A stretch of DNA of 11,135 nt from the IMG/VR virus record IMGVR_UViG_2675903606_000019, positions 1-11,135 of that record. The stretch is one strand, 5' to 3'. A model generated the notes under the pieces. The model was not told the DNA's origin and searched no databases. It saw only the letters and a list, made by a program, of their open reading frames with translations. Every line of letters begins with the position of its first letter. Positions within the stretch are counted from its first letter, which is position 1. The stretch comes from a virus. Taxonomy: Duplodnaviria > Heunggongvirae > Uroviricota > Caudoviricetes. Below, one piece after another: positions 1 through 11,135 of this stretch. A program made the translations under genes and the position numbers.

Positions 1-1218
1 ATGAACAAACTGAGCGATACCTTGCTAAGGAAACTTCATGGTAAGCCAGCGGAGAAAAACACGTTTTATAGTGATGGCGGAAACCTGAGCGTGAAATATT
101 TAACATCAGGGAAATTGACCTGGTATTTCACATACAGGGCCGGAACGGGAAGGGAGACACGACCCGAACGCATTAAGCTGGGAAGTTATCCTGATCTGAG
201 CCTGAAAGCAGCCAGGGAAAAAGCCGCACAGTGTCGCACATGGCTGGCTGAGGGGAAAAATCCACGTCATGAGATGAATTACACCGTACAGGAAGCGTTA
301 AAGCCCGTAACGGTTGGCGATGCGCTCACCTACTGGCTTGAGTATTACGTAAAGGAAAACCGCGTGGATTATATCGCCCTGAAAAGGCGACTTAATAATC
401 ACGTAATACAGCAGATTGGTGCTATGCCGCTGGATAAATGCGAGCTACGGCACTGGCTGGCCTGTTTTGACCAGGTGGCAAAGCGAACGCCTGTTACTGC
501 CGGATTCGTGCTACAGGCGTGCAAACAGGCGCTTAAGTTCTGCCGTAGGCGGCGCTATGCAATCAGCAACGTTCTGGACGATCTGAACGTGGCGGACGTT
601 GGGAAAAAACCGGATATAAGCGAACGTGTCTTAAGTAACAAAGAACTTGGCGAATTATTGCAGGCACTGGACAAAAAAATATTTTCCCCTTACTACGTCG
701 CGTTAATCCGCCTCCTGATTGTCTTCGGAGCCAGGACGGTAGAACTGAGGCTATCGGAGATCGGGGAGTGGGATTTTACGGAAATGCTATGGACCGTTCC
801 GAAGGAGCACAGCAAAACGAAGGTCGCAATATTCCGGCCCATACCGGAAGCGATCCTGCCGTTCGTCACGCAGCTGGTGGAGCAGAACAGGCACACGGGC
901 TTATTGCTGGGGGAAGCGAAACAGGAGGCCAGCGTATCGCAGTATGGAAGATTAGCGCACAGGAGGCTTAATCATCCTCACTGGTCACTGCATGACATCC
1001 GGCGCACCTTTACAACCATGCTGAACGATTTAGGCGTTGATCCGCATGTCGTGGAGCAGCTTACAGGTCATCAGATGCCAGGAATGCAGCGAGTTTATAA
1101 TCATTCCCGTTATCTGGATGCTAAACGCAATGCGCTGGATATGTGGACGGAGCGGTTAGGGATACTGGCGGGAACACATGAAAACGTAACCACGCTACCA
1201 GTAGCCAGAAGAAAATAA
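1..1218 (+). CDS. int: P4-family tyrosine integrase (site-specific recombinase)
   Basis: 405-aa ORF from the track. N-terminal arm-binding-type segment (GKLTWYFTYR, GSYPDLSLKAAREKA) and C-terminal tyrosine-recombinase signature (HDIRRT ... GHQMPGMQRVYNHSRY). Overall pattern matches P4/CP4-57 IntA-type integrases from memory. Confidence 0.9.
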   Translation: MNKLSDTLLRKLHGKPAEKNTFYSDGGNLSVKYLTSGKLTWYFTYRAGTGRETRPERIKLGSYPDLSLKAAREKAAQCRTWLAEGKNPRHEMNYTVQEALKPVTVGDALTYWLEYYVKENRVDYIALKRRLNNHVIQQIGAMPLDKCELRHWLACFDQVAKRTPVTAGFVLQACKQALKFCRRRRYAISNVLDDLNVADVGKKPDISERVLSNKELGELLQALDKKIFSPYYVALIRLLIVFGARTVELRLSEIGEWDFTEMLWTVPKEHSKTKVAIFRPIPEAILPFVTQLVEQNRHTGLLLGEAKQEASVSQYGRLAHRRLNHPHWSLHDIRRTFTTMLNDLGVDPHVVEQLTGHQMPGMQRVYNHSRYLDAKRNALDMWTERLGILAGTHENVTTLPVARRK

Positions 1219-1236
1219 TTTTTTTCGTGTTTTTTC

Positions 1237-1252
1237 AGTATGCGCATACTGG
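1237..1252. repeat. Perfect 16-bp palindrome CAGTATGCGCATACTG just 3' of int
   Basis: Read directly from the sequence. A T-run precedes it on the plus strand and no U-run follows, so it is more likely a protein-binding dyad than a terminator. Confidence 0.6.
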
Positions 1253-1263
1253 ATATGCGAACA

Positions 1264-1320
1264 GATACAACATGCAACAATGAGCAACAATGCGGAACAA
1301 CTACGAACAAGAGGCGAAAA
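1264..1320. repeat. Helically phased (10-bp period) AACAA/ACAA repeats, 5-6 copies
   Basis: Consecutive 10-nt blocks each end in ACAA: gatACAA / catgcAACAA / tgagcAACAA / tgcggAACAA / ctacgAACAA / gaggcgAAAA. Strict 10-bp phasing suggests same-face binding sites or a bent-DNA element in the int-alpA spacer. Confidence 0.5.
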
Positions 1321-1404: not shown

Positions 1405-1433
1405 AAAGGCATGAAACAATATTTTATGCCTTT
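1405..1433. terminator. Hairpin AAAGGCAT-N13-ATGCCTTT flanked by A-run and T-run (possible bidirectional terminator)
   Basis: 8-bp inverted repeat seen in the sequence. On the minus strand the stem is followed by UUUUUUCUC, on the plus strand by UUUGUAUU. The loop is large (13 nt), so the call is weak. Confidence 0.3.
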
Positions 1434-1592
1434 GTATTAACATGAATTTAAATGATTTTATCCTGATTATTCCTGTTTCTGTAAACCATACGACCTCAAC
1501 ATTTGCCAACTCTGAATCATCCTGACACAATCAGACACATCCCAACGCAATAGAACACGAAATAACTCTTTAAGAAACGAAAGGGGGCAATA

Positions 1593-1781
1593 GTGTTAAG
1601 CACTGATCGGTTTATACGTGAAAAAGAATGCGAAAAGCTAACAGGCCTTAGCCGCTCATGCCGCTACCGCCTGGAAAAGGCCGGACAATTCCCATCACGT
1701 CGTAAACTTGGCGGTCGTTCCGTTGGCTGGTCTTTATCCGAGGTTCTGGCCTGGAAGGATAGCTGCAAGGCAGTTCATTAA
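1593..1781 (+). CDS. alpA: AlpA-family prophage transcriptional regulator (small HTH protein)
   Basis: 62-aa ORF with GTG start at 1593 and RBS AAGGGGG about 6 nt upstream. Pattern EKLTGLSRSCRYRLEKAGQFPSRRKLGGRSVGWSLSEVLAW matches the AlpA signature (G.SR...Y.....G.FP....LG.RSVGW...E...W). Confidence 0.85.
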   Translation: MLSTDRFIREKECEKLTGLSRSCRYRLEKAGQFPSRRKLGGRSVGWSLSEVLAWKDSCKAVH

Positions 1782-3183: not shown

Positions 3184-3483
3184 ATGAGAACATATTTATC
3201 TGGCTTGACTGCCAGCGGTTATGCACACCCAAAAATTATCCCCGGCGCTATTTATCTGGATAAGAACGGTAACAGAGTAACGGTAAAAGAACTGATGTTT
3301 GACCGTGTTTATTTTATCCGTGATGGATATTCATTTCTTAGTTCGCTGAACGTGGAGATCTTTATTTGCAGATTCCGGCGGGAAATCCCGACTTCCAGAA
3401 ATAACCATGTGTCACGTGTGGATGTGGATAAAAAACTACAGGAACTGAAAAACATGATTGCCGCGTGGAGAGAGCAGAAATGA
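3184..3483 (+). CDS. Hypothetical protein (99 aa), AT-rich cargo-like gene
   Basis: Track ORF MRTYLSGLTASGYAHPKIIPGAIYLDKNGNRVTVKELMFDRVYFIRDGYSF... RBS GGGGA upstream. Its stop TGA (3481-3483) overlaps the ATG (3480-3482) of the primase gene (ATGA coupling). Confidence 0.65.
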   Translation: MRTYLSGLTASGYAHPKIIPGAIYLDKNGNRVTVKELMFDRVYFIRDGYSFLSSLNVEIFICRFRREIPTSRNNHVSRVDVDKKLQELKNMIAAWREQK

Positions 3484-5603
3484 AAAAAGCGCCAAATTTA
3501 AAACACCAGCCGCGTGACAAAATGACGGAAGTCATCATTTTTGCGGGTAGTGATGCGTGGGCACATGCGAAGCAGTGGCAGGAACAGGACGGGCGACTGG
3601 CTGGCGACAGCGTGCCTCCTGTCTGGCTTGGAGAGCAACAACTTGCCGAACTGGATAAGCTGCAAATTGTGCCGGAAGGCCGAAAATCAGTACGCATATT
3701 CAGGGCCGGACATCTTGAGCCAGTAATGATCAAGGCGATTGGTCAGAAGCTGGCGGCGGCAGGCGTACAGGATGCAAATTTTTACCCTGATGGAATGCAC
3801 GGTCAGGAGGTGGAGAACTGGCGCGAATATCTAGCCCGTGAGCGGCAGAATCTTTCTGATGGTCTGGTTATTGAGTTTCCGGTAAAGAAAAAAGATACCG
3901 GAAGCCATAGCGATGACGAATTAAAGCCACGCGTTGAAAGTCGCGCCGATGGTGTTTTCTGGGTAACGCCCAAAGTGGATAAGCAGTCAGGCGAAATTAT
4001 CCGGCCTGAGACGTGGTTATGTTCTCCGCTTGAACTACTGGGAACGGGGACGATCGGTAAAGAGCATTACCGCGTGATGCGCTGGAAAAAAACCGCAAAC
4101 CATGAAGTCATCACAATGGCGATCCCGTGTGGTGGTATCGGCGACCGTGACGGCTGGCGGTTACTTAAAGATCACGGGCTGAACGTGACAACCAACGGCA
4201 AATACAGGGCAATCCTGGCGGACTGGATGCAGTTAAGCGGAAGCCATGAGGAATGGCAGTTAAGCACAACAACGGGCTGGCATTTTGGCGCGTACATCAT
4301 GCCGGACGGTTCGATCATTGGTGAATCTGAAAAACCGATCCTGTTTACCGGAAAAAGCGCCGCGATTAACGGTTATTCCGTGGCGGGCACGGCGGATGGC
4401 TGGCGCGACAGCGTGGCGCGGCTGGCTGGCGGTAATGCCTCAATGATGCTGGGTGTGGCAACGTCACTGGCAGCGCCTTTAATTGGCCTTGTGGGTGCTG
4501 ACGGCTTCGGGGTGCATCTTTTCGAACAGTCATCGGCAGGTAAGACCACCACGCAGAACATCGCATCAAGTTTATGGGGAGAGCCGGACGCGCAGCGGCT
4601 GACCTGGTACGGCACGGCGTTAGGTATTGCCAATGAGGCCGAGGCCCATAATGACGGGCTTTTACCACTGGATGAGATAGGCCAGGCCGGAAATGCGCGG
4701 GAAGTGTCAACGTCTGCTTATACGCTGTTTAACGGTTCAGGGAAATTGCAGGGGGCGAAGGATGGCGGCAACAGGGAGATCAAACACTGGCGAACGGTGG
4801 CAATCAGCACCGGAGAAATGGACGTTGAGACATTCCTCAAAAGTGAGGGGATAAAAGTTAAGGCGGGGCAGCTTGTCCGACTGCTTAACGTTCCGATGGA
4901 AAAAGCCACGAAATTTCACGAATACAGCAACGGTAAGGAACATGCTGACGCGTTAAAGGATGCCTGGACAGCAAATCACGGGGCGGCGGGTCGTGAGTGG
5001 GTTAAATGGCTGGCAGGCCACCAGCAGGAGGCAAAGGATACGGTAAGGGAATGCCGCGAACGGTGGCGCAACCTGATACCGGAGAGCTACGGCGAGCAGG
5101 TCCACCGCGTGGGTGAACGTTTCGCCATACTGGAGGCCGCGCTTGTGCTTTCCGGTCATGTAACTGGCTGGGTCGTGCAGGAATGCCGCGACGCGATACA
5201 GCATAACTTTAATGCCTGGGTGAAGGAGTTCGGCACGGGTAACAGGGAATTTAAACAGATGGTTGAACAGGCTGAGGCGTTTTTGTCGTCGTTTGGGTTT
5301 AGCCGCTACCTTCCGTACCCCAATACAGATGAGCGTGATTTACCGATTAAAGAGCTTGCCGGATACAGAAAAGGGAGCATTCGCAACGAAGATGACGAGA
5401 TGCGCTATTACACGTTCCCGCACGTGTTTGAGAGTGAGATAGCGAAGGGATTTAATCCGGCGCATTTTGCGCGTGCCCTGGATGCTGCCGGAATGCTGGA
5501 GAAGGGAAGCGATCGCCGATACAAAAAAAAGGCGCTGGGCAAGATTGGGGGTAAGCAGCATGTTTTTTACGTGCTGATGTTCCAGCCTGATGATGAAGAT
5601 TAA
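3480..5603 (+). CDS. Replication primase/helicase-type protein (P4 alpha / PICI Pri-Rep-like; NTPase with Walker A motif)
   Basis: About 707 aa (track ORF 3465..5603; the ATG at 3480 with ATGA overlap is preferred, ATG at 3465 or 3522 possible). Contains Walker A-like SSAGKTTT and is followed directly by an iteron array. Size and position match the satellite/prophage primase-helicase class. The exact domain family needs a profile search. Confidence 0.8.
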   Translation: MKKAPNLKHQPRDKMTEVIIFAGSDAWAHAKQWQEQDGRLAGDSVPPVWLGEQQLAELDKLQIVPEGRKSVRIFRAGHLEPVMIKAIGQKLAAAGVQDANFYPDGMHGQEVENWREYLARERQNLSDGLVIEFPVKKKDTGSHSDDELKPRVESRADGVFWVTPKVDKQSGEIIRPETWLCSPLELLGTGTIGKEHYRVMRWKKTANHEVITMAIPCGGIGDRDGWRLLKDHGLNVTTNGKYRAILADWMQLSGSHEEWQLSTTTGWHFGAYIMPDGSIIGESEKPILFTGKSAAINGYSVAGTADGWRDSVARLAGGNASMMLGVATSLAAPLIGLVGADGFGVHLFEQSSAGKTTTQNIASSLWGEPDAQRLTWYGTALGIANEAEAHNDGLLPLDEIGQAGNAREVSTSAYTLFNGSGKLQGAKDGGNREIKHWRTVAISTGEMDVETFLKSEGIKVKAGQLVRLLNVPMEKATKFHEYSNGKEHADALKDAWTANHGAAGREWVKWLAGHQQEAKDTVRECRERWRNLIPESYGEQVHRVGERFAILEAALVLSGHVTGWVVQECRDAIQHNFNAWVKEFGTGNREFKQMVEQAEAFLSSFGFSRYLPYPNTDERDLPIKELAGYRKGSIRNEDDEMRYYTFPHVFESEIAKGFNPAHFARALDAAGMLEKGSDRRYKKKALGKIGGKQHVFYVLMFQPDDED

Positions 5604-5625
5604 TCCCCTGTGTGAGGAAAAAAAT

Positions 5626-5941
5626 TGCGGGTTATGCGGGTTATCCTGTGTATAAGTGTATTAAGTGCATGAATATAAAGGAAACCAATAACCCGCACGT
5701 AACCCGCAAAAGGGCATTTATAACCCGCAAAAGCACGATTATAACCCGCAGGCGAATAACTGAAGTAACACCGGACAGTCATGCGTAACCCGCAGAAAAA
5801 ACCCAGTTTGCGGGTTATTTTGAGCGTTTTGCGGGTTACGTGGTGAGCAAATAATAAACAGGGTGTTTTGCAAAATACTGATATAAAAGGATAAAAAATG
5901 GTTAGCACGCTAAGATAACCCAATAACCCGCATAACCCGCA
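5626..5941. repeat. Iteron array: about 11-12 copies of TAACCCGCA in both orientations (probable replication origin)
   Basis: Reverse copies (TGCGGGTTA) at 5626-5634, 5635-5643, 5809-5817, 5830-5838. Forward copies at 5689-5697, 5700-5708, 5721-5729, 5742-5750, 5786-5794, 5924-5932, 5933-5941, plus a degenerate copy near 5914-5922. AT-rich stretches at 5855-5960. Lies immediately downstream of the primase/helicase gene. Confidence 0.75.
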
Positions 5942-5973
5942 CATGTTTCTATATATATAAATTGAGGTGGCAA

Positions 5974-6225
5974 ATGACCAGAACACGCAGAGACAGAACA
6001 GAGCCAAAATATAAAGCGTTAGACATGACTGAGCACACCTTAAAGGTGGCAATCAGAACGATAGACCGCCACACGCGGGAAGGATACGCGAAGGAACATC
6101 CCGACCTGATAAGCGCATTCATGACCACGGCGGCGGCAAACTTTGCCACGCTGACAGAACGGGAGATTGCCGAAGCGGAACAGGTAACAACCATCAACGT
6201 TAAAACCGGAGAGGTGGAATCATGA
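5974..6225 (+). CDS. Hypothetical protein (83 aa from ATG 5974; the track starts at TTG 5962)
   Basis: RBS GAGG at 5964-5967 precedes ATG 5974. Its stop overlaps the ssb start (ATGA at 6222-6225). No family recognised. Confidence 0.6.
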   Translation: MTRTRRDRTEPKYKALDMTEHTLKVAIRTIDRHTREGYAKEHPDLISAFMTTAAANFATLTEREIAEAEQVTTINVKTGEVES

Positions 6226-6632
6226 CAGCACAGATAGCGGCTTACGGTCGGCTGGTGGACGACCCGCAGGTAAAACAGACCAGCAAGGGCACACCGATGA
6301 CGCTGGCGCGTATGGCGGTATCACTGCCATGCAGTCAGGCACAGGACGGACAGGCGACGTTATGGCTATCGGTCATCGCATTTGGTAAGCAGGCCGACTT
6401 CCTGGCTAAACATCAAAAAGGCGACGTTGCCAGCGTATCCGGCACGATGCAGGTAAGCCAGTGGACCGGACAGAACGGGGAGACGCGTCAGGGTTATCAG
6501 GTTATTGCAGACAGCGTAATCAGTGCCCGTGCGGCACGTCCTGGCGGGAACAGACGCAAAACCACAGGCGCACAGGGTAATCAGCCACCAGCGGGAGGCG
6601 ATGACCCTTACGGTGATGATATTCCGTTCTGA
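6222..6632 (+). CDS. ssb: Single-stranded DNA-binding protein (SSB), short form with canonical acidic C-terminal tip
   Basis: 136 aa. OB-fold-like core (GRLVDDPQV..., W...FGKQADFL..KG..V...G......W....G..R) and C-terminus ending DDPYGDDIPF, matching the conserved SSB DDDIPF tail that recruits partner proteins. Confidence 0.85.
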   Translation: MTAQIAAYGRLVDDPQVKQTSKGTPMTLARMAVSLPCSQAQDGQATLWLSVIAFGKQADFLAKHQKGDVASVSGTMQVSQWTGQNGETRQGYQVIADSVISARAARPGGNRRKTTGAQGNQPPAGGDDPYGDDIPF

Positions 6633-6642
6633 GGGGGTGACG

Positions 6643-6915
6643 ATGGTACATGACCGCATAGCGGAAGAACTCGAAGCGAAAGGATTTTACCGGAGGGCGG
6701 CGGCGCGATGGGGTGAAGTCATGATGCTGGTGGAGACAGACAAGGAACGGCATCACATCACGATGCGACGGCTGGAATGTTCCAGGAAGGCACAGAGGCC
6801 ACCGGAGCCGCCGGATAACTTCGGAGACCTGAGAAAGGCAGTCGATCGCACTTATGCTGAAATGGGTATAGATGGTGTAAGCGATGAAATATGGCGTAAT
6901 TACCCAGGCAGCTAA
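6643..6915 (+). CDS. PerC-like small transcriptional regulator (90 aa)
   Basis: ATG at 6643 with RBS GAGGGGG 5 nt upstream (the track ORF 6523..6915 is in frame but its 5' part overlaps ssb). Motif EELEAKGFYRRAAARWGEVMM resembles the PerC-family signature (G-[FW]-[WY]-RRAA-x-RW) as I recall it. Confidence 0.55.
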   Translation: MVHDRIAEELEAKGFYRRAAARWGEVMMLVETDKERHHITMRRLECSRKAQRPPEPPDNFGDLRKAVDRTYAEMGIDGVSDEIWRNYPGS

Positions 6916-6921
6916 TCAACA

Positions 6922-6943
6922 GCCGGAGTAATCCGGCTTTTTT
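6922..6943 (+). terminator. Rho-independent terminator after the replication module
   Basis: Stem GCCGGA/TCCGGC with GTAA loop followed by TTTTTT (6938-6943). Confidence 0.7.
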
Positions 6944-6956
6944 GTACCCAAAAAAA

Positions 6957-6992
6957 GCCCGATAAGTACAGGAGGCATCTTATCGGGCTTTT
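6957..6992. terminator. Second hairpin terminator, potentially bidirectional
   Basis: 10-bp stem GCCCGATAAG/CTTATCGGGC with 12-nt loop. A-run upstream (6950-6956), TTTT downstream, and a further T8 run at 7003-7010. Confidence 0.5.
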
Positions 6993-7071
6993 GCATATGA
7001 GGTTTTTTTTGGTGCACTGACACACATGATCGGGATCATCATTTCATAATTTGCAACACAACTCAACATCA

Positions 7072-7099
7072 TTGCATAAAATGCAATCATGATTATAAT
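7072..7099 (+). promoter_or_regulatory. Strong sigma70-like promoter for the capsid operon (-35 TTGCAT, 16-bp spacer, -10 TATAAT)
   Basis: TTGCAT at 7072-7077 and a perfect TATAAT at 7094-7099. Located about 55 nt upstream of the first late-operon start codon. Confidence 0.5.
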
Positions 7100-7103
7100 C
7101 AGA

Positions 7104-7119
7104 TCTGGATGAACATCCA
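7104..7119. promoter_or_regulatory. Perfect inverted repeat CTGGATG-AA-CATCCAG at the predicted transcription start
   Basis: Seen in the sequence. Followed within 6 nt by a T6 run (GATTTTTTAAG). Could be an operator or a 5' RNA hairpin/attenuator. A second dyad, ATGATC-GG-GATCAT, lies upstream at about 7026-7039. Confidence 0.45.
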
Positions 7120-7155
7120 GTTATGATTTTTTAAGTCAAAGAGGAATTTCTTACT

Positions 7156-7362
7156 ATGGCTGAAGAGAAAAAAGGCGGTGTTTCGGTGTACATAAGCCCC
7201 GACATCGTGAAGGCGCTCAAGGAACGCCACCAGCAGAACGTAAAAGCAGGCATTGCGGCAGGACTTGATCCGCTGGCGATGGTTGAGCCGTCAACAGGCT
7301 GGCAGGTACGCGCCTATTTACGCGCGGCGCTGGGTATGAATCAGGTTCACGGGGGTGAATAA
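7156..7362 (+). CDS. Hypothetical protein (68 aa), first gene of the capsid operon
   Basis: RBS GAGGA 10 nt upstream. Its stop TAA overlaps the major capsid gene start (TAATG at 7360-7364). No family recognised. Confidence 0.6.
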   Translation: MAEEKKGGVSVYISPDIVKALKERHQQNVKAGIAAGLDPLAMVEPSTGWQVRAYLRAALGMNQVHGGE

Positions 7363-8417
7363 TGACAGTAAAAGCAATAGCACTTAACACTAACCAGCTT
7401 TTTGTGTACCTGAATCGCGAGGATATTGCGGAATTTAAATTCAGTCCGCTGTTTACCGCGCTGTTTTTCCCGAACGTGGCGACATTCAACACACAGGACA
7501 TCATGTTAGATAACCTGGATATTGAAGAAGTCACTATGTCGGCGTTTTGTTCGCCTATGGTGGGTAGCCAGGTTCAGCGCGATAAAGGGTACGAAACAAG
7601 CATTATTCGCCCTGGCTACATGAAGCCAAAACACGAAATCGATCCATTAAAAACAATAATGCGCATGGCTGGAGAAGATCCAGCACAGCTTAACGACCCT
7701 ACCTACCGCCGTATGCGCCTGATTACTGGCAACATGCGCCGCCAGATAAACGCCATTAAAGCGCGCGTGGAATGGCTGGCGGTAAATGCGGTAACGACCG
7801 GAAAAAACATCATTGAGGGCGAAGGCATAGAGCGCTATGAAATCGACTGGAAGATACCGGAAAAAAACATCATAGAGCAGGCCGACGGTAAAAAATGGTC
7901 AGAGCAGGACAAAGACATACACGACCCAATCTATGACATTGAGCTATACGCAGATCAGGCAGGTTGCCCCGCCAACGTCATGATTATGGGCGTTGATGTA
8001 TGGCGCATGTTACGCAGCTTTAAAAAATTCCGTGAACTGTACGATCTCTCCCGTGGTTCAGAATCCGCCGCAGAGCTGGCATGTAAAAACCTGGGCGAAG
8101 TGGTGAGCTTTAAAGGCTATCTTGGTGATCTGGCCCTTATCGTCTATTCCGGCAAATACACTGACAGCGACGGCACAGAAAAATATTTCCTTGAGCCTGA
8201 TTTGCTGGTCCTGGGCAACACCAACAATAAAGGGCTGGTGGCCTATGGTGCGATTATGGAACAGGAAGCGGTAAGAACGGGCGCAACGCAAAACATGTTT
8301 TACCCGAAAAACTGGATTGAAGACGGCGATCCGGCGATTGAGTACGTGCAGACACACAGCGCACCGCAGCCTGTTCCGGCAGATATTCGCAAATTTGTTA
8401 CCGTCAAAATTGGTTAA
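7362..8417 (+). CDS. Major capsid protein, lambda gpE family
   Basis: 351 aa. Multiple blocks match phage lambda gpE as recalled: FKFSPLFTALFF (lambda FKFDPLFLRLFF), PGYMKPKHEIDP (PGYVKPKHEVNP), EDPAQLNDPTYRRMRLITGNMRRQ (EDPQNLADPAYRRRRIIMQNMRDE), YPKNWIEDGDPAIEYVQTHSAP (YPKNWVTTGDPAREFTMIQSAP). Confidence 0.9.
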   Translation: MTVKAIALNTNQLFVYLNREDIAEFKFSPLFTALFFPNVATFNTQDIMLDNLDIEEVTMSAFCSPMVGSQVQRDKGYETSIIRPGYMKPKHEIDPLKTIMRMAGEDPAQLNDPTYRRMRLITGNMRRQINAIKARVEWLAVNAVTTGKNIIEGEGIERYEIDWKIPEKNIIEQADGKKWSEQDKDIHDPIYDIELYADQAGCPANVMIMGVDVWRMLRSFKKFRELYDLSRGSESAAELACKNLGEVVSFKGYLGDLALIVYSGKYTDSDGTEKYFLEPDLLVLGNTNNKGLVAYGAIMEQEAVRTGATQNMFYPKNWIEDGDPAIEYVQTHSAPQPVPADIRKFVTVKIG

Positions 8418-8428
8418 CGGTGGATTCT

Positions 8429-8764
8429 ATGAACACTCCATACATTGAGTTATTTGCAGGCAGTCAGCAGGTATCAACGACGCTGGTACATTTTGCCGCT
8501 GATGCTGGCGTTATTCAGGAATTTACCCCGCTGATGCTGGCGGACAATGGCGAGTTTAAGCCGTGGGATGGTCAGGAATCTGGCAAGGCTGTTTATCTGA
8601 CCTCGTACCCCGTTGACACGTCGACGCAGAAATCAGCACAGTGCTATAAGACGGGGATATTCAATATCGCCGCCGTTAACTGGCCTGAGAGCGTCGACAC
8701 CGATGCGAAAAAATGCGCCGCCTTTGCGGGTTCTGGCGTATCCGTTCAGCCGCTGGCCCGATAA
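8429..8764 (+). CDS. Head decoration protein, lambda gpD family
   Basis: 111 aa from ATG 8429 (the track starts at GTG 8420); RBS GGTGGA 5 nt upstream. Matches lambda gpD blocks: TPLMLADNGEFKPWDG (lambda TPLMLDTSSRKLVAWDG), YKTGIFNIAAVNWPESVDTDAKKCAAFAGSGVSV ([35 protein letters not shown]). Confidence 0.85.
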   Translation: MNTPYIELFAGSQQVSTTLVHFAADAGVIQEFTPLMLADNGEFKPWDGQESGKAVYLTSYPVDTSTQKSAQCYKTGIFNIAAVNWPESVDTDAKKCAAFAGSGVSVQPLAR

Positions 8765-8776
8765 GCAGGGGGAACG

Positions 8777-9190
8777 ATGGCAACGAATGAAAGCATCATG
8801 GCGCTACCGCTGGCGAGTAAATTTAAAGCCGAAGCGCGGGCAATGGCTGACAGAGGGTTATCAACCTACGAGGCCGTATATCAACTCAACAAACTGGAAG
8901 AACAGGACAAGCCGCGCGCTGATGCGATTATGGCGCTTCATGAACATAACGACTATCAGCCGCTGTTACGTGCAATGGCAAACGTGCCATGTATTAGCGT
9001 CGATAATGCTCGTGAAATCCTGAACATGACCATAGAGCAGGAGCGCCCAAAGGTTGCACCAGAGCTTACCGCAGCCTTTGAAAACTTTATGGACATGCAC
9101 AGCCCGCAAGCCGTATCAGCTGGCATGGCATACGATGGCAGAAACCAGGGCGATGACGGCGACATCGATCACATACTGAAAACCATCTGA
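8777..9190 (+). CDS. Hypothetical protein (137 aa), last gene of the capsid operon
   Basis: RBS AGGGGGA 4 nt upstream of the ATG. Acidic C-terminus. No resemblance noted to lambda FI/FII/W as I recall them. Followed by a strong terminator. Confidence 0.65.
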   Translation: MATNESIMALPLASKFKAEARAMADRGLSTYEAVYQLNKLEEQDKPRADAIMALHEHNDYQPLLRAMANVPCISVDNAREILNMTIEQERPKVAPELTAAFENFMDMHSPQAVSAGMAYDGRNQGDDGDIDHILKTI

Positions 9191-9196
9191 GACAAG

Positions 9197-9220
9197 GCCG
9201 GAGAAATCCGGCTTTTTTTT
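9197..9220 (+). terminator. Strong rho-independent terminator (GNRA tetraloop hairpin plus T8)
   Basis: Stem GCCGGA/TCCGGC with GAAA loop and 8 T (9213-9220). The stem is identical to that of the terminator at 6922-6943. Confidence 0.8.
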
Positions 9221-9298
9221 ACGGGTCCTTTCCGGCATATGGACCCGTTACGGGGCGGCGACCTCGCGGTTTTTCGCTATTTATGAGCCTTTTCAGGG
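9221..9298. other. Lambda-type cos site (cosQ-like, cosN 12-nt cohesive end GGGCGGCGACCT at 9253-9264, start of cosB)
   Basis: ACGGGTCCTTTCCGG...GTTACG-GGGCGGCGACCT-CGCGGTTTTTCGCTATTTATGA closely matches the right and left termini of phage lambda as I recall them (right end ...ACGGGTCCTTTCCGGTGATCCGACAGGTTACG, left end GGGCGGCGACCTCGCGGGTTTTCGCTATTTATGA...). Sequence diverges from lambda after about 9298. Confidence 0.8.
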
Positions 9299-9358
9299 GG
9301 GTGGTGGTGGTTTTGTTGTTTGCTCTATCTTTATGAATGAAAAGGGAAAGATGCAAAC

Positions 9359-9396
9359 AATACACCAACCTGAAGCAGTAATTAAGTTGGTGTATT
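9359..9396. repeat. Perfect 11-bp inverted repeat AATACACCAAC-N16-GTTGGTGTATT abutting the terS start codon
   Basis: Read directly from the sequence. The right arm ends 2 nt before ATG 9398. Candidate cosB-type binding site or a translational-control hairpin. Confidence 0.5.
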
Positions 9397-9397
9397 A

Positions 9398-9940
9398 ATG
9401 AAATCGCACCTGATGAACAAAAAAAACATGGCGAAAAGCTGCCGTGTAAGTGCGACAGCGTTCGACAAGTGGGGAGTGACTCCCGTTGAACGTAAAGGCC
9501 GTGAGGCGTTTTACGATGTTGCCAGCGTGATAGACAATAGGGTTAACAATGCAATTAGCCAGCTTACAAACGACAAAGGCGATATTGATGATGATGAACT
9601 CTTACGAGTCAGGATCAGATTACTGACAGCACAGGCGGAGGCGCAGGAACTTAAAAACGAGCGCGATCGCGGTGACGTGATCGATACTGAGTTTTGCCTG
9701 TACGCGCTTTCAAAGCTGGCGAGTCAGATTTCATCAATCATGGACAGCCTCCCGCTTACTATGCAAAGGAGCTTCCCACAGATTACCCCCGCCATGCTGG
9801 ATAGGCTTAAAAGGGAAGTGGTTAAAGCCTGTAATGCCAGTGCCAGAGTTGCCGACAACCTCCCACAGATACTGGCTGATTACTTGAAAGAAACAACCGG
9901 AAACGTACCGGAAAAGTTGCAGCCGAATAAAGATAAGTAA
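9398..9940 (+). CDS. Terminase small subunit, lambda Nu1 family
   Basis: 180 aa. C-terminal two thirds align with lambda Nu1 as recalled: RLLTAQAEAQELKNERDRGDVIDTEFCLYALSKLASQISSIMDSLPLTMQRSFPQ (lambda RLTRAQADAQELKNARDSAEVVETAFCTFVLSRIAGEIASILDGLPLSVQRRFPE). N-terminal region is more divergent but still shows NKK...W...G.PV.R.G....YD.A.VI. Confidence 0.85.
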   Translation: MKSHLMNKKNMAKSCRVSATAFDKWGVTPVERKGREAFYDVASVIDNRVNNAISQLTNDKGDIDDDELLRVRIRLLTAQAEAQELKNERDRGDVIDTEFCLYALSKLASQISSIMDSLPLTMQRSFPQITPAMLDRLKREVVKACNASARVADNLPQILADYLKETTGNVPEKLQPNKDK

Positions 9941-9951
9941 CGTAGTACGCT

Positions 9952-10233
9952 ATGACTGAATCCGAAATACTGCGATTAATCCGCCGCGTCTCTGGAATCA
10001 GCCAGCAGGCTGACGAACAGACCACGCAGCCGGACAGCGTGACAGCCGAAAACTATGCGCGTGTTGTTGCTGAGGTGATGCGCCGTGATGGTATAGAACT
10101 TAATGGCGTGGATATGCGCAACATACGAACCAGAGTTCTTGAGTTGCTGGCCTACCGTCGCCGCGTGGAGATGTATCGGGAGAAGGAGAAAATAACGTAC
10201 CACTGGAAGAAGCCGGAGCGGTTGCGGCGGTAA
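9952..10233 (+). CDS. Hypothetical protein (93 aa) downstream of terS
   Basis: Track ORF MTESEILRLIRRVSGISQQADEQ... It occupies the position where lambda has the large terminase gene A, but is far too small to be a terminase. No family recognised. Confidence 0.55.
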   Translation: MTESEILRLIRRVSGISQQADEQTTQPDSVTAENYARVVAEVMRRDGIELNGVDMRNIRTRVLELLAYRRRVEMYREKEKITYHWKKPERLRR

Positions 10234-10526
10234 CTGGTTGATATTCCCGACGGACCAAAAATGGGTGGCTACATCCCTCGCTTCTGAGGACTGTTAACAA
10301 GCTGCCTGAAAGACAGTCACAAACTACGAAATTTTCGCAGTTTAATTAATGATCAGCTTAATCGCTAACCCGCTGATATTTTCGGAAACCTCAATTTGAG
10401 GAAGTCGGCGCGGTAACTCGCTGAACTTTAAGCAAAGCGCAAAATTGCGCTTGCTGAATAATCATTATGATTACGCAGATGATTAAGGAATGACCGAAGG
10501 CGGAAATTCGCCTGTGGTTAATGGGG

Positions 10527-10546
10527 GAGTTGCAGATCTGCAACTC
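10527..10546. repeat. Perfect 20-bp palindrome GAGTTGCAGATCTGCAACTC
   Basis: Read directly from the sequence. A perfect 20-bp palindrome is very unlikely by chance in 11 kb. Confidence 0.7.
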
Positions 10547-10552
10547 GACCAT

Positions 10553-10639
10553 GAAACTACGGAAACTACCCGTAGTTTGGGTAGTAAGAGTAACACCCAG
10601 ATTTTGGGTCTTACTCGTGATACCCAAATTTGGGGTATC
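10553..10639. repeat. Half-site array (AAACTAC x2, then GTAGTTT and a partial GGGTAGT) followed by two adjacent stable hairpins / palindromic sites
   Basis: AAACTAC at 10554-10560 and 10563-10569, GTAGTTT at 10572-10578, partial copy at 10579-10585. Hairpin GAGTAA-c-ACCCA-gattt-TGGGT-c-TTACTC (10588-10616). Hairpin GATACCC-aaatttg-GGGTATC (10619-10639). The two ACCCA...GGGT units are direct repeats of a palindromic site about 27 bp apart. Confidence 0.55.
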
Positions 10640-10902
10640 AGTGGCAACCATAACGACTTTCGTTACGGTTGATGCTTTTACCCCATTGGGGGAAAGGTAT
10701 TACGATAATCATAACACCTACCGAACAGGTAAAGCCCACCAGCCTGATTAACGTTTAACCGGAAAAAAATTCCGGTAGGTGGGGATCCCCATATCGACAT
10801 TAACGCCCCTCATGAATTGGTGCGCTTCCCCCTGGAAAGATGATCCGCCTGTATATTTCTTGTGTCTATTTGTTCCACGTTGTTTCATACAGTGCACCGA
10901 AC

Positions 10903-10924
10903 GGTGTAGTCACTGGTGTAGTCA
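10903..10924. repeat. Tandem direct repeat GGTGTAGTCA x2 (12-bp period) near the right junction; candidate integrase arm-type sites
   Basis: GGTGTAGTCA at 10903-10912 and 10915-10924, followed by TTTTGCG repeats at about 10924-10950. About 75 bp inside the proposed junction. Confidence 0.4.
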
Positions 10925-10976
10925 TTTTGCGATTTTTGGCACTTTTTGCGGTGAAAATTATTTAATTAAATCAACG

Positions 10977-11135
10977 TGTTATGTGAAATAAGTTATATAT
11001 AACAGCAATAAATAATGCGAGAATAAACGGCACGATGATCTCGGTGGCAAAACGGATACCGCAGAGAATAATGACCAGCATTCCCAACATAATGACGATT
11101 TTTAGGCCATTGAGCGTGATGATCGGCTTTGCCAT
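10977..11135 (-). pseudogene. tqsA: Truncated 5' fragment of a tqsA-like (AI-2 exporter family) membrane protein gene; likely chromosomal flank interrupted by the element
   Basis: Minus-strand ORF of 52 codons, [52 protein letters not shown], then TAA. The first 46 or so residues match the N-terminus of E. coli TqsA/YdgG as I recall it; the reading frame then diverges and stops, where the native protein continues for about 300 more residues. Confidence 0.55.

Follow-up and report, generated by a model that had tools for sequence, protein, structure and literature searches.

In an Escherichia coli phage satellite, the spacer between the integrase gene int and the regulatory gene alpA carries a set of phased 10-bp repeats (array 1) that is real, conserved and functional-looking. 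Sequence features and analogy with better studied systems suggest that these repeats, together with related arrays elsewhere on the island, are probably cooperative binding sites for AlpA, a small protein of the Xis/TorI type, and that they serve both autoregulation of alpA and excision of the element. Phased excisionase-type sites are a well-known kind of element; their position upstream of alpA is undescribed in the literature that we searched.

The stretch of DNA that we analyzed (11,135 nt, hereafter the window) represents a complete E. coli phage satellite (PICI). It starts just inside int and ends with attR at the start of tqsA, the host gene interrupted by the island (Table 1). According to the RefSeq annotation of the E110019 locus, int begins 12 nt 5' of the window edge, and its product possesses arm-binding, central and catalytic domains. 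Beyond the genes listed in Table 1, the window carries an SSB gene, a lambda-E-type capsid gene and a gene for a Nu1-type small terminase. Its first 1.8 kb are identical to E. coli E110019, and related int-alpA regions are present in more than 870 (about 880-910) of 5426 complete E. coli genomes, element Sp7 of the O157:H7 strain Sakai among them. The capsid-forming island EcCIEDL933 of O157:H7 EDL933, whose induction requires alpA (bioRxiv 10.1101/2022.09.08.507074), is taken to be the O157:H7 relative of the window locus. The packaging module of the window (6200-11135) encodes the lambda E-type capsid and the Nu1-type small terminase, and that of the E110019 island (L009) an HK97-type capsid, a protease, a portal protein and a P27-type terminase. 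As the int-alpA regions of both islands are identical and the replication genes that we inspected match, the late region is a mosaic. A weak Rfam match to the SymR antitoxin RNA on the minus strand (2588-2660; 33 bits against a gathering score of 61; E 0.0034) falls in a region that is annotated with YlcI/YnfO-family and Icd-like genes in E110019, and is probably due to chance.

Table 1. Coordinates of features of the satellite island; positions are those of the window unless another sequence is named.
Feature	Position	Strand	Description
int	1..1218	+	P4-type tyrosine integrase; Pfam Arm-DNA-bind_3, Phage_int_M (below cutoff), Phage_integrase; RefSeq annotation of the identical E110019 locus
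T-rich block TTTTTTTCGTGTTTTTT	1219..1235	.	Directly 3' of the int stop codon; nearly invariant among 53 distinct spacers
Palindrome CAGTATGCGCATACTG	1236..1251	.	Perfect over 16 bp; lineage-specific
Array 1	1261..1320	+	Five in-phase 10-bp units ending in (A/T)ACAA plus a degenerate sixth; proposed AlpA binding sites
Hairpin AAAGGCATGAAA/TTTTATGCCTTT	1405..1433	+	Conserved 12-bp stem between array 1 and alpA
Candidate alpA promoter	1503..1531	+	-35 TTGCCA (1503-1508), 17-bp spacer, TG-extended -10 CACAAT (1526-1531); consensus scan
Array 2	1521..1560	+	Four weaker 10-bp units CCTGACACAA, TCAGACACAT, CCCAACGCAA, TAGAACACGA
alpA	1593..1781	+	62-aa winged-helix protein, excisionase type; Pfam Phage_AlpA (PF05930), 5e-18
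DUF927 primase-type gene	3465-5603
Replication origin	5625-5942	both orientations	About 13 copies of the 9-mer TAACCCGCA/TGCGGGTTA, directly 3' of the DUF927 primase gene
attR (P arm) array	10860..10890	-	TTGTGTC, TTGTTCC, TTGTTTC at exact 10-bp spacing; array 1 motif on the opposite strand
12-bp doublet GGTGTAGTCACT GGTGTAGTCATT	10903..10926	+	Proposed Int arm-type sites; follows the attR array
Second doublet copy	L001 1843-1866		Upstream of int, outside the window
att core ATAACAGCA	10999..11007	.	Common to attL and attR

Array 1 comprises the units GATACAA, GCAACAA, GCAACAA, GGAACAA and CGAACAA, followed by the degenerate GCGAAAA. ACAA starts at 1267, 1277, 1287, 1297 and 1307, and hence at exact 10-bp intervals; four of the units contain the full AACAA (1276, 1286, 1296 and 1306), the first unit reads TACAA, and the sixth ends with GAAAA (1316-1320). 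Shuffling the window 2000 times with dinucleotides preserved gave period-10 runs of at most two AACAA, as against the four observed, and of at most three ACAA (in four shuffles), as against five observed. TRF reported a period-10 array at 1274-1300. Positions, shuffles and TRF thereby confirm the original prediction, which had described five to six ACAA-ending blocks at an exact spacing of 10 bp.

Selective constraint on these repeats is evident from a set of 53 distinct int-alpA spacers compiled from E. coli genomes and IMG/VR contigs. The mean diversity is 0.09 at the five core positions of the array 1 units and 0.36 at the five linker positions (permutation p<1e-5), the latter value exceeding even the average of the whole spacer (0.24). 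Two positions, the central C and the G at position -7, are invariant in every unit. Array 1 gains one 10-bp unit in a relative (L040) and has six units in divergent lineages. The lengths of the 53 spacers group near 354, 364, 374 and 384, with indels of 10-bp units; since slippage of such units alone may be sufficient to explain this quantization, we do not take it as a sign that the phase between distant elements is under selection.

The motif of array 1 recurs elsewhere on the island. Over whole islands (10-13 kb), phased runs of at least three ACAA or TTGT elements are found at four places only: in the P and P' arms, between int and alpA and, in a single island (E110019), upstream of the capsid operon. 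The phased TTGT triple at 10860-10883, about 130 bp inside attR, is the sole other such run in the window (0.07 expected), and the array to which it belongs is conserved in other islands. The P' arm of the identical E110019 locus contains four units (CCTTGTTCCA, GCTTGTTTCA, CGTTGTAGCC and CTTTGTGCAA) between the att core and the start of int; individual units match units of array 1, CGTGAAACAA, for example, occurring in both. In both att arms the inverted motif TTGTTC, spaced by 10 bp, is located beside a doubled GGTGTAGTnnnn. The original prediction had deduced from the helical phasing that several copies of a protein bind on one face of the DNA, and had named Xis-type sites and control of alpA as candidate functions; the constrained cores, the recurrence of the motif in the P and P' arms, and the resemblance to the mapped sites of TorI (PMC2951348) lend support to each of these proposals.

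The perfect trio upstream of the E110019 capsid operon (TTGTTCG, TTGTTCC, TTGTTCG at 10-bp spacing; L009 11420-11460, between perC and the capsid gene) is positioned just after a terminator hairpin, 5' of the packaging operon, and is not adjoined by an Int doublet. This arrangement suggests that the same protein may control late genes in the E110019 island as well. No phased TTGTT array is present in the window's own packaging module.

A single-sequence structure model of AlpA (pLDDT 87) found its best structural match in the GIsul2 excisionase 8C3T (TM 0.79, 39% identity), a PDB entry that was also matched by the AlpA sequence. RdfS, Pukovnik Xis, TorI and MerR-type winged helices were further structural matches, and the modeled fold of AlpA is of the excisionase type. 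A second AlpA subfamily, encoded by islands next to cspD/yljB, is 56-60% identical and has conserved helix and wing residues. Its spacer cannot be aligned with that of the window, yet it carries three to four GAAC units at exact 10-bp spacing and in the same orientation as alpA; this array ends just before a TTGGCA hexamer, and its linkers vary between lineages. The att arms of these islands contain three to four copies of TTGTTCG, followed by two copies of GGTGTAGT. The comparison of relatives for phasing rather than for sequence, which had been suggested along with the original prediction, thus gave a positive outcome.

AlpA varies little across our set, so no true co-variation between AlpA and its motif is to be seen; both subfamilies keep the helix and wing residues along with the GAAC core and do not provide an informative divergent pair. 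Two distant AlpA homologues from other phyla, whose genomic contexts differ, are not accompanied by a phased array. A search of contigs with AlpA alone yielded three loci, two of them in unrelated contexts devoid of arrays, and our alignment-based viral scan mostly kept near-identical loci. In E. coli K-12, the 43 bp before the start codon of the original alpA gene in CP4-57 (L285 3102-3144) contain GCAACCAAAG, TGAACCAATG and AGAGGCAACA, two to three units with AAC that are spaced by 10 bp and look similar to array 1; the attL of CP4-57 carries GTCC(C/G), likewise with a 10-bp spacing.

Sites of the excisionase type are arranged as direct repeats with a spacing of one helix turn (PMC7498355), and the filaments of RdfS and BldC are head-to-tail, each turn being occupied by one protein (PMC11963761). 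The arrays described here share several hallmarks of winged-helix excisionase site arrays: direct repeats at one-turn spacing, a constrained core with free linkers, sites in the att arms beside likely Int arm-type sites, and a small winged-helix protein of the excisionase type encoded by the island itself. TorI, a small winged-helix excisionase from a group annotated as AlpA family, recognizes five attL sites in KplE1 with the cores GTTCG, GATCG and GTCCG (PMC2951348). In the K-12 sequence of KplE1, sites I3-I5 read GTTCG, GTTCG and GATCG at exact 10-bp spacing and abut the -35 region of the intS promoter (PintS); I1 and I2 are 20 bp apart, and the Int arm sites are nearer to the int start. 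As in the arrays analyzed here, the direct repeats of sites I1-I5 of KplE1/CPS-53 are made up of 5-bp cores separated by 5-bp linkers that vary (Panis et al.; PMC2951348, PMC3509656). The KplE1 sites are bound cooperatively by a winged-helix excisionase of ~66 aa and lie upstream of a P4-type int; the order upstream of int in our island, with the array followed by the likely Int arm sites nearer to int, is the same. The cores are related too, GTTCG for TorI and TTGTTCG here, the reverse complement of CGAACAA containing GTTCG. However, TorI sites are known only at attL, where they mediate repression of int, whereas our island has an additional, larger array between int and the regulator's own gene, inverted and 1.45 kb away from the core. 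AlpA and TorI are, moreover, only distantly related (fold TM 0.63, 22% identity).

Other recombination systems show some of these features. The Xis sites X1-X1.5-X2 of phage lambda resemble the layout proposed here: a winged-helix excisionase occupies them head to tail, roughly one turn apart, adjacent to an Int arm site, and bends the DNA. They differ in that there are just three sites, on one arm only, and no separate promoter array. Cox of phage P2 is a dual excisionase and transcription regulator, and activates a promoter (P4 PLL). With the proposed role of AlpA, Cox and Apl of coliphage 186 have in common that one small protein uses one-turn direct repeats both at att and in a promoter region, for Apl between promoters (PMC7498355). 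Apl and Cox belong to protein families different from that of AlpA, and they repress lysogenic or early promoters of a phage switch, whereas the proposed target here is the regulator's own promoter in a satellite, and the effect reported in relatives is activation. We discarded the Pseudomonas aeruginosa AlpA antiterminator (PMC9371919) as a model because it is unrelated to the 62-aa AlpA protein and shares its name only; it has at least 142 residues, is Q-like and uses a single GGGACG between -35 and -10.

AlpA acts as an excisionase in PICMI (PMC10803314) and in CP4So (PMC5148205), and AlpA of EcCIMP1 is a positive autoregulator (PMC11773190). It is on account of these published roles that we read the arrays as AlpA operators; the identity of the binding protein is inferred, as are the sign and mechanism of the regulation. 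AlpA would recognize a 7-bp core, G-N-A-A-C-A-A, once per helical turn, and array 1 would provide five to six such sites in head-to-tail arrangement. Bound monomers would be aligned along a single face of the DNA, and might act cooperatively and induce a bend. The weaker array 2 would belong to the same family of sites. Bound to the arrays in the att arms, AlpA would steer excision of the island and probably also modulate the int promoter in the way TorI does in KplE1; bound to arrays 1 and 2 between int and alpA, it would autoregulate its own gene, with autoactivation possibly brought about by relieving the silencing of a spacer with 35% G+C.

The region between array 1 and alpA contains several further elements. 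TTGCCA-17-CACAAT is the only consensus promoter in front of alpA; TTTGCCA is invariant, and the (A/C)ACAAT hexamer at a distance of 17 bp is kept even in lineages with a replaced spacer. By eye, no convincing sigma-70 promoter could be found directly 3' of array 1, as TATAAG at 1333 is missing the last T and is not preceded by a clear -35. Array 1 lies about 190-250 bp upstream of the candidate promoter, with the conserved hairpin in between. One pair of the hairpin stem is A:T, G:T or G:C depending on the relative, a series that fits an RNA structure on the + strand; the hairpin tail is weakly T-rich on the + strand and better so on the - strand. The terminator scan did not call this hairpin, and it is a possible terminator or attenuator of rightward transcripts. 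Array 2 covers the candidate -10 and the early leader, where binding would more typically repress than bring about the autoactivation that has been reported. Its first unit, taken as the core with its 3' flank (TGACACAATCA), equals a variant found in array 1 of relatives, and its size varies among relatives, 10 bp being inserted in CH4799 and 10-bp stretches being deleted in Sakai-type spacers. Two copies of a sequence beginning with AAT(C/A)ACTCTTTAA(A/G), 180 bp apart (1381-1400 and 1561-1580), are highly conserved in relatives, the second being located just 5' of the alpA ribosome-binding site. A permissive-threshold search of Rfam gave no match within the int-alpA spacer.

The original prediction had also drawn attention to a perfect 16-bp palindrome 19 bp after the int stop. 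The palindrome is indeed present, but it starts at 1236 instead of 1237, 17 nt after the stop codon (1216-1218), it is within chance expectation (57 of 300 shuffles of the window contain a perfect palindrome of at least 16 bp), and it is not conserved. Sakai Sp7 and L015 have single uncompensated changes within it, and more divergent lineages carry two extra GACAA/AACAA repeat units (GCGGACAA and CGTGAAACAA) in its place. With no T-run after it on either strand, it does not qualify as an intrinsic terminator, and it was not among the calls of the terminator scan. We have therefore dropped it as a terminator or operator; it is probably a lineage-specific accident and unlikely to be a functional unit. 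A longer perfect palindrome (20 bp; GAGTTGCAGATCTGCAACTC) is found at 10527-10546 in the non-coding stretch 5' of attR.

Could the repeats be an intrinsically curved, AT-rich element on which host nucleoid proteins (H-NS, possibly Fis/IHF) silence alpA, with no island protein reading the sequence? The G+C content of the spacer (35%, versus 49% for the window) would be in keeping with this idea, and H-NS binds and represses the alpA promoter in CP4So of Shewanella (PMC5148205). Array 1 also ranks in the top 2-3% of the window for 10-bp AA/TT periodicity and for curvature predicted from wedge angles; the parameter-free AA/TT periodicity measure places array 1 at the 97.5-98th percentile. This curvature is moderate, however, being exceeded by that of the origin, the attR arm and the region upstream of terS. 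The original prediction had named an intrinsically bent element as one possibility, but a bend would preserve A-richness and does not explain a central C and a G at -7 in every unit. Nor does it account for the recurrence of the 7-mer next to the Int arm motif in the two att arms, or for GAAC phasing in an unrelated spacer. As the sole explanation, intrinsic curvature is in our view rather unlikely; as a second layer it is compatible with reading by AlpA.

That the sites are read by a protein from outside the island, either a helper-phage factor that induces alpA or a host regulator of the OmpR/ArcA type with its 10-11-bp direct repeats, appears quite unlikely. Some of the units have the sequence TGAAACAA, which presumably resembles an OmpR half-site. 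Helper phages switch on alpA through its upstream region even when AlpA is absent (PMC6092414; PMC11773190), and in EcCIMP1 the helper response of a reporter fragment (-449 to +50) persists in a delta-alpA strain (PMC11773190). A host regulator would, however, not be expected in both att arms beside Int sites, nothing points to any specific phage factor, and the helpers of related islands are diverse.

The arrays could alternatively be additional arm-type sites for the N-terminal domain of the integrase, autoregulating int or alpA or forming part of the recombination complex. Int does possess an arm-binding domain, the array 1 motif is present in the P and P' arms, and phased direct repeats are common among arm-type sites, as in P'1-P'3 of lambda. 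Array 1, however, starts 1452 bp from the center of the attL core, far beyond any known arm, and in KplE1 the layout seen here is that of excisionase sites, not of Int sites (PMC2951348). A better candidate for the integrase is the tandem 12-bp doublet GGTGTAGTCACT GGTGTAGTCA(C/T)T that follows each att-arm array, with centers 88 bp before and 144 bp after the core. Its last four nucleotides are either CACT or TAAT (GGTGTAGT-CACT versus -TAAT) in accordance with the type (A or B; 78% identical) of the N-terminal arm-binding domain of Int, not with the rest of the protein. The attR doublet, 10 kb away, tracks the domain type in nine of ten contigs, the exception being a hybrid (L052); this tracking reflects few independent events and two Int domain types, and the attL copy is physically linked to the int start. 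The TTGTT arrays are identical in islands with type A and type B domains, whereas the neighboring GGTGTAGTnnnn switches at both island ends. Since its variant tracks the domain type, the GGTGTAGTnnnn doublet is the likelier integrase arm-type site; this assignment, and that of TTGTT to AlpA, rests on analogy and on two Int domain types. Integrase arm sites, one of the candidates originally put forward for array 1, are accordingly a very unlikely explanation of it.

The attP doublet tgTGTATTGCa of helper-embedded PICIs (PMC10111431) is similarly a tandem of 12-bp sequences that occurs once per arm in co-orientation, at -81/+132 as compared with -88/+144 for GGTGTAGTnnnn. It differs in sequence from GGTGTAGTnnnn, whose variant follows the Int domain; the study that described it reported that other PICIs do not have it and did not settle which protein binds it (PMC10111431).

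A further scenario, which we deem highly improbable, is that the helper's own Xis/TorI-type excisionase binds GTTCG-containing sites upstream of alpA and starts its expression, upon which AlpA autoactivates. This scenario would be compatible with the AlpA-independent induction by helpers (PMC6092414, PMC11773190) and with the GTTCG cores of TorI sites (PMC2951348). Excisionase cross-talk between the helper Kapi1 and its satellite has been demonstrated, and the Xis protein of Kapi1 was reported to be 100% identical in sequence to PDB entry 1Z4H (PMC11773190), which is the structure of TorI. If true, induction of the satellite would be tied directly to the decision of the helper to excise.

That array 1 is a neutral tandem repeat, a fragment of a small gene or a set of replication iterons is hardly tenable: tandem 10-bp units can arise by slippage and a 66-codon ORF spans 1240-1440, but the difference in constraint between core and linker opposes neutrality, 10-bp and 1-bp indels break the ORF among relatives, and the iterons of the origin are located elsewhere and have an unrelated motif. 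The origin iterons flank the most curved, AT-rich stretch of the window (5766-5800).

In Gram-negative phage satellites, AlpA serves as the master switch. From the literature that we found, it is known to activate its own promoter, to be needed for excision and to be switched on by a helper-phage signal; its DNA sites are unmapped in these studies, and our search found no published mapping of them. The model proposed here, G-N-AACAA at 10-bp spacing, places such sites in each att arm, ahead of alpA and, on some islands, also 5' of the capsid operon. It thereby makes the autoregulation of AlpA, its dual role as excisionase and regulator, and the search for the helper signal amenable to experimental testing, and it could help to annotate att sites and regulatory regions of phage satellites.
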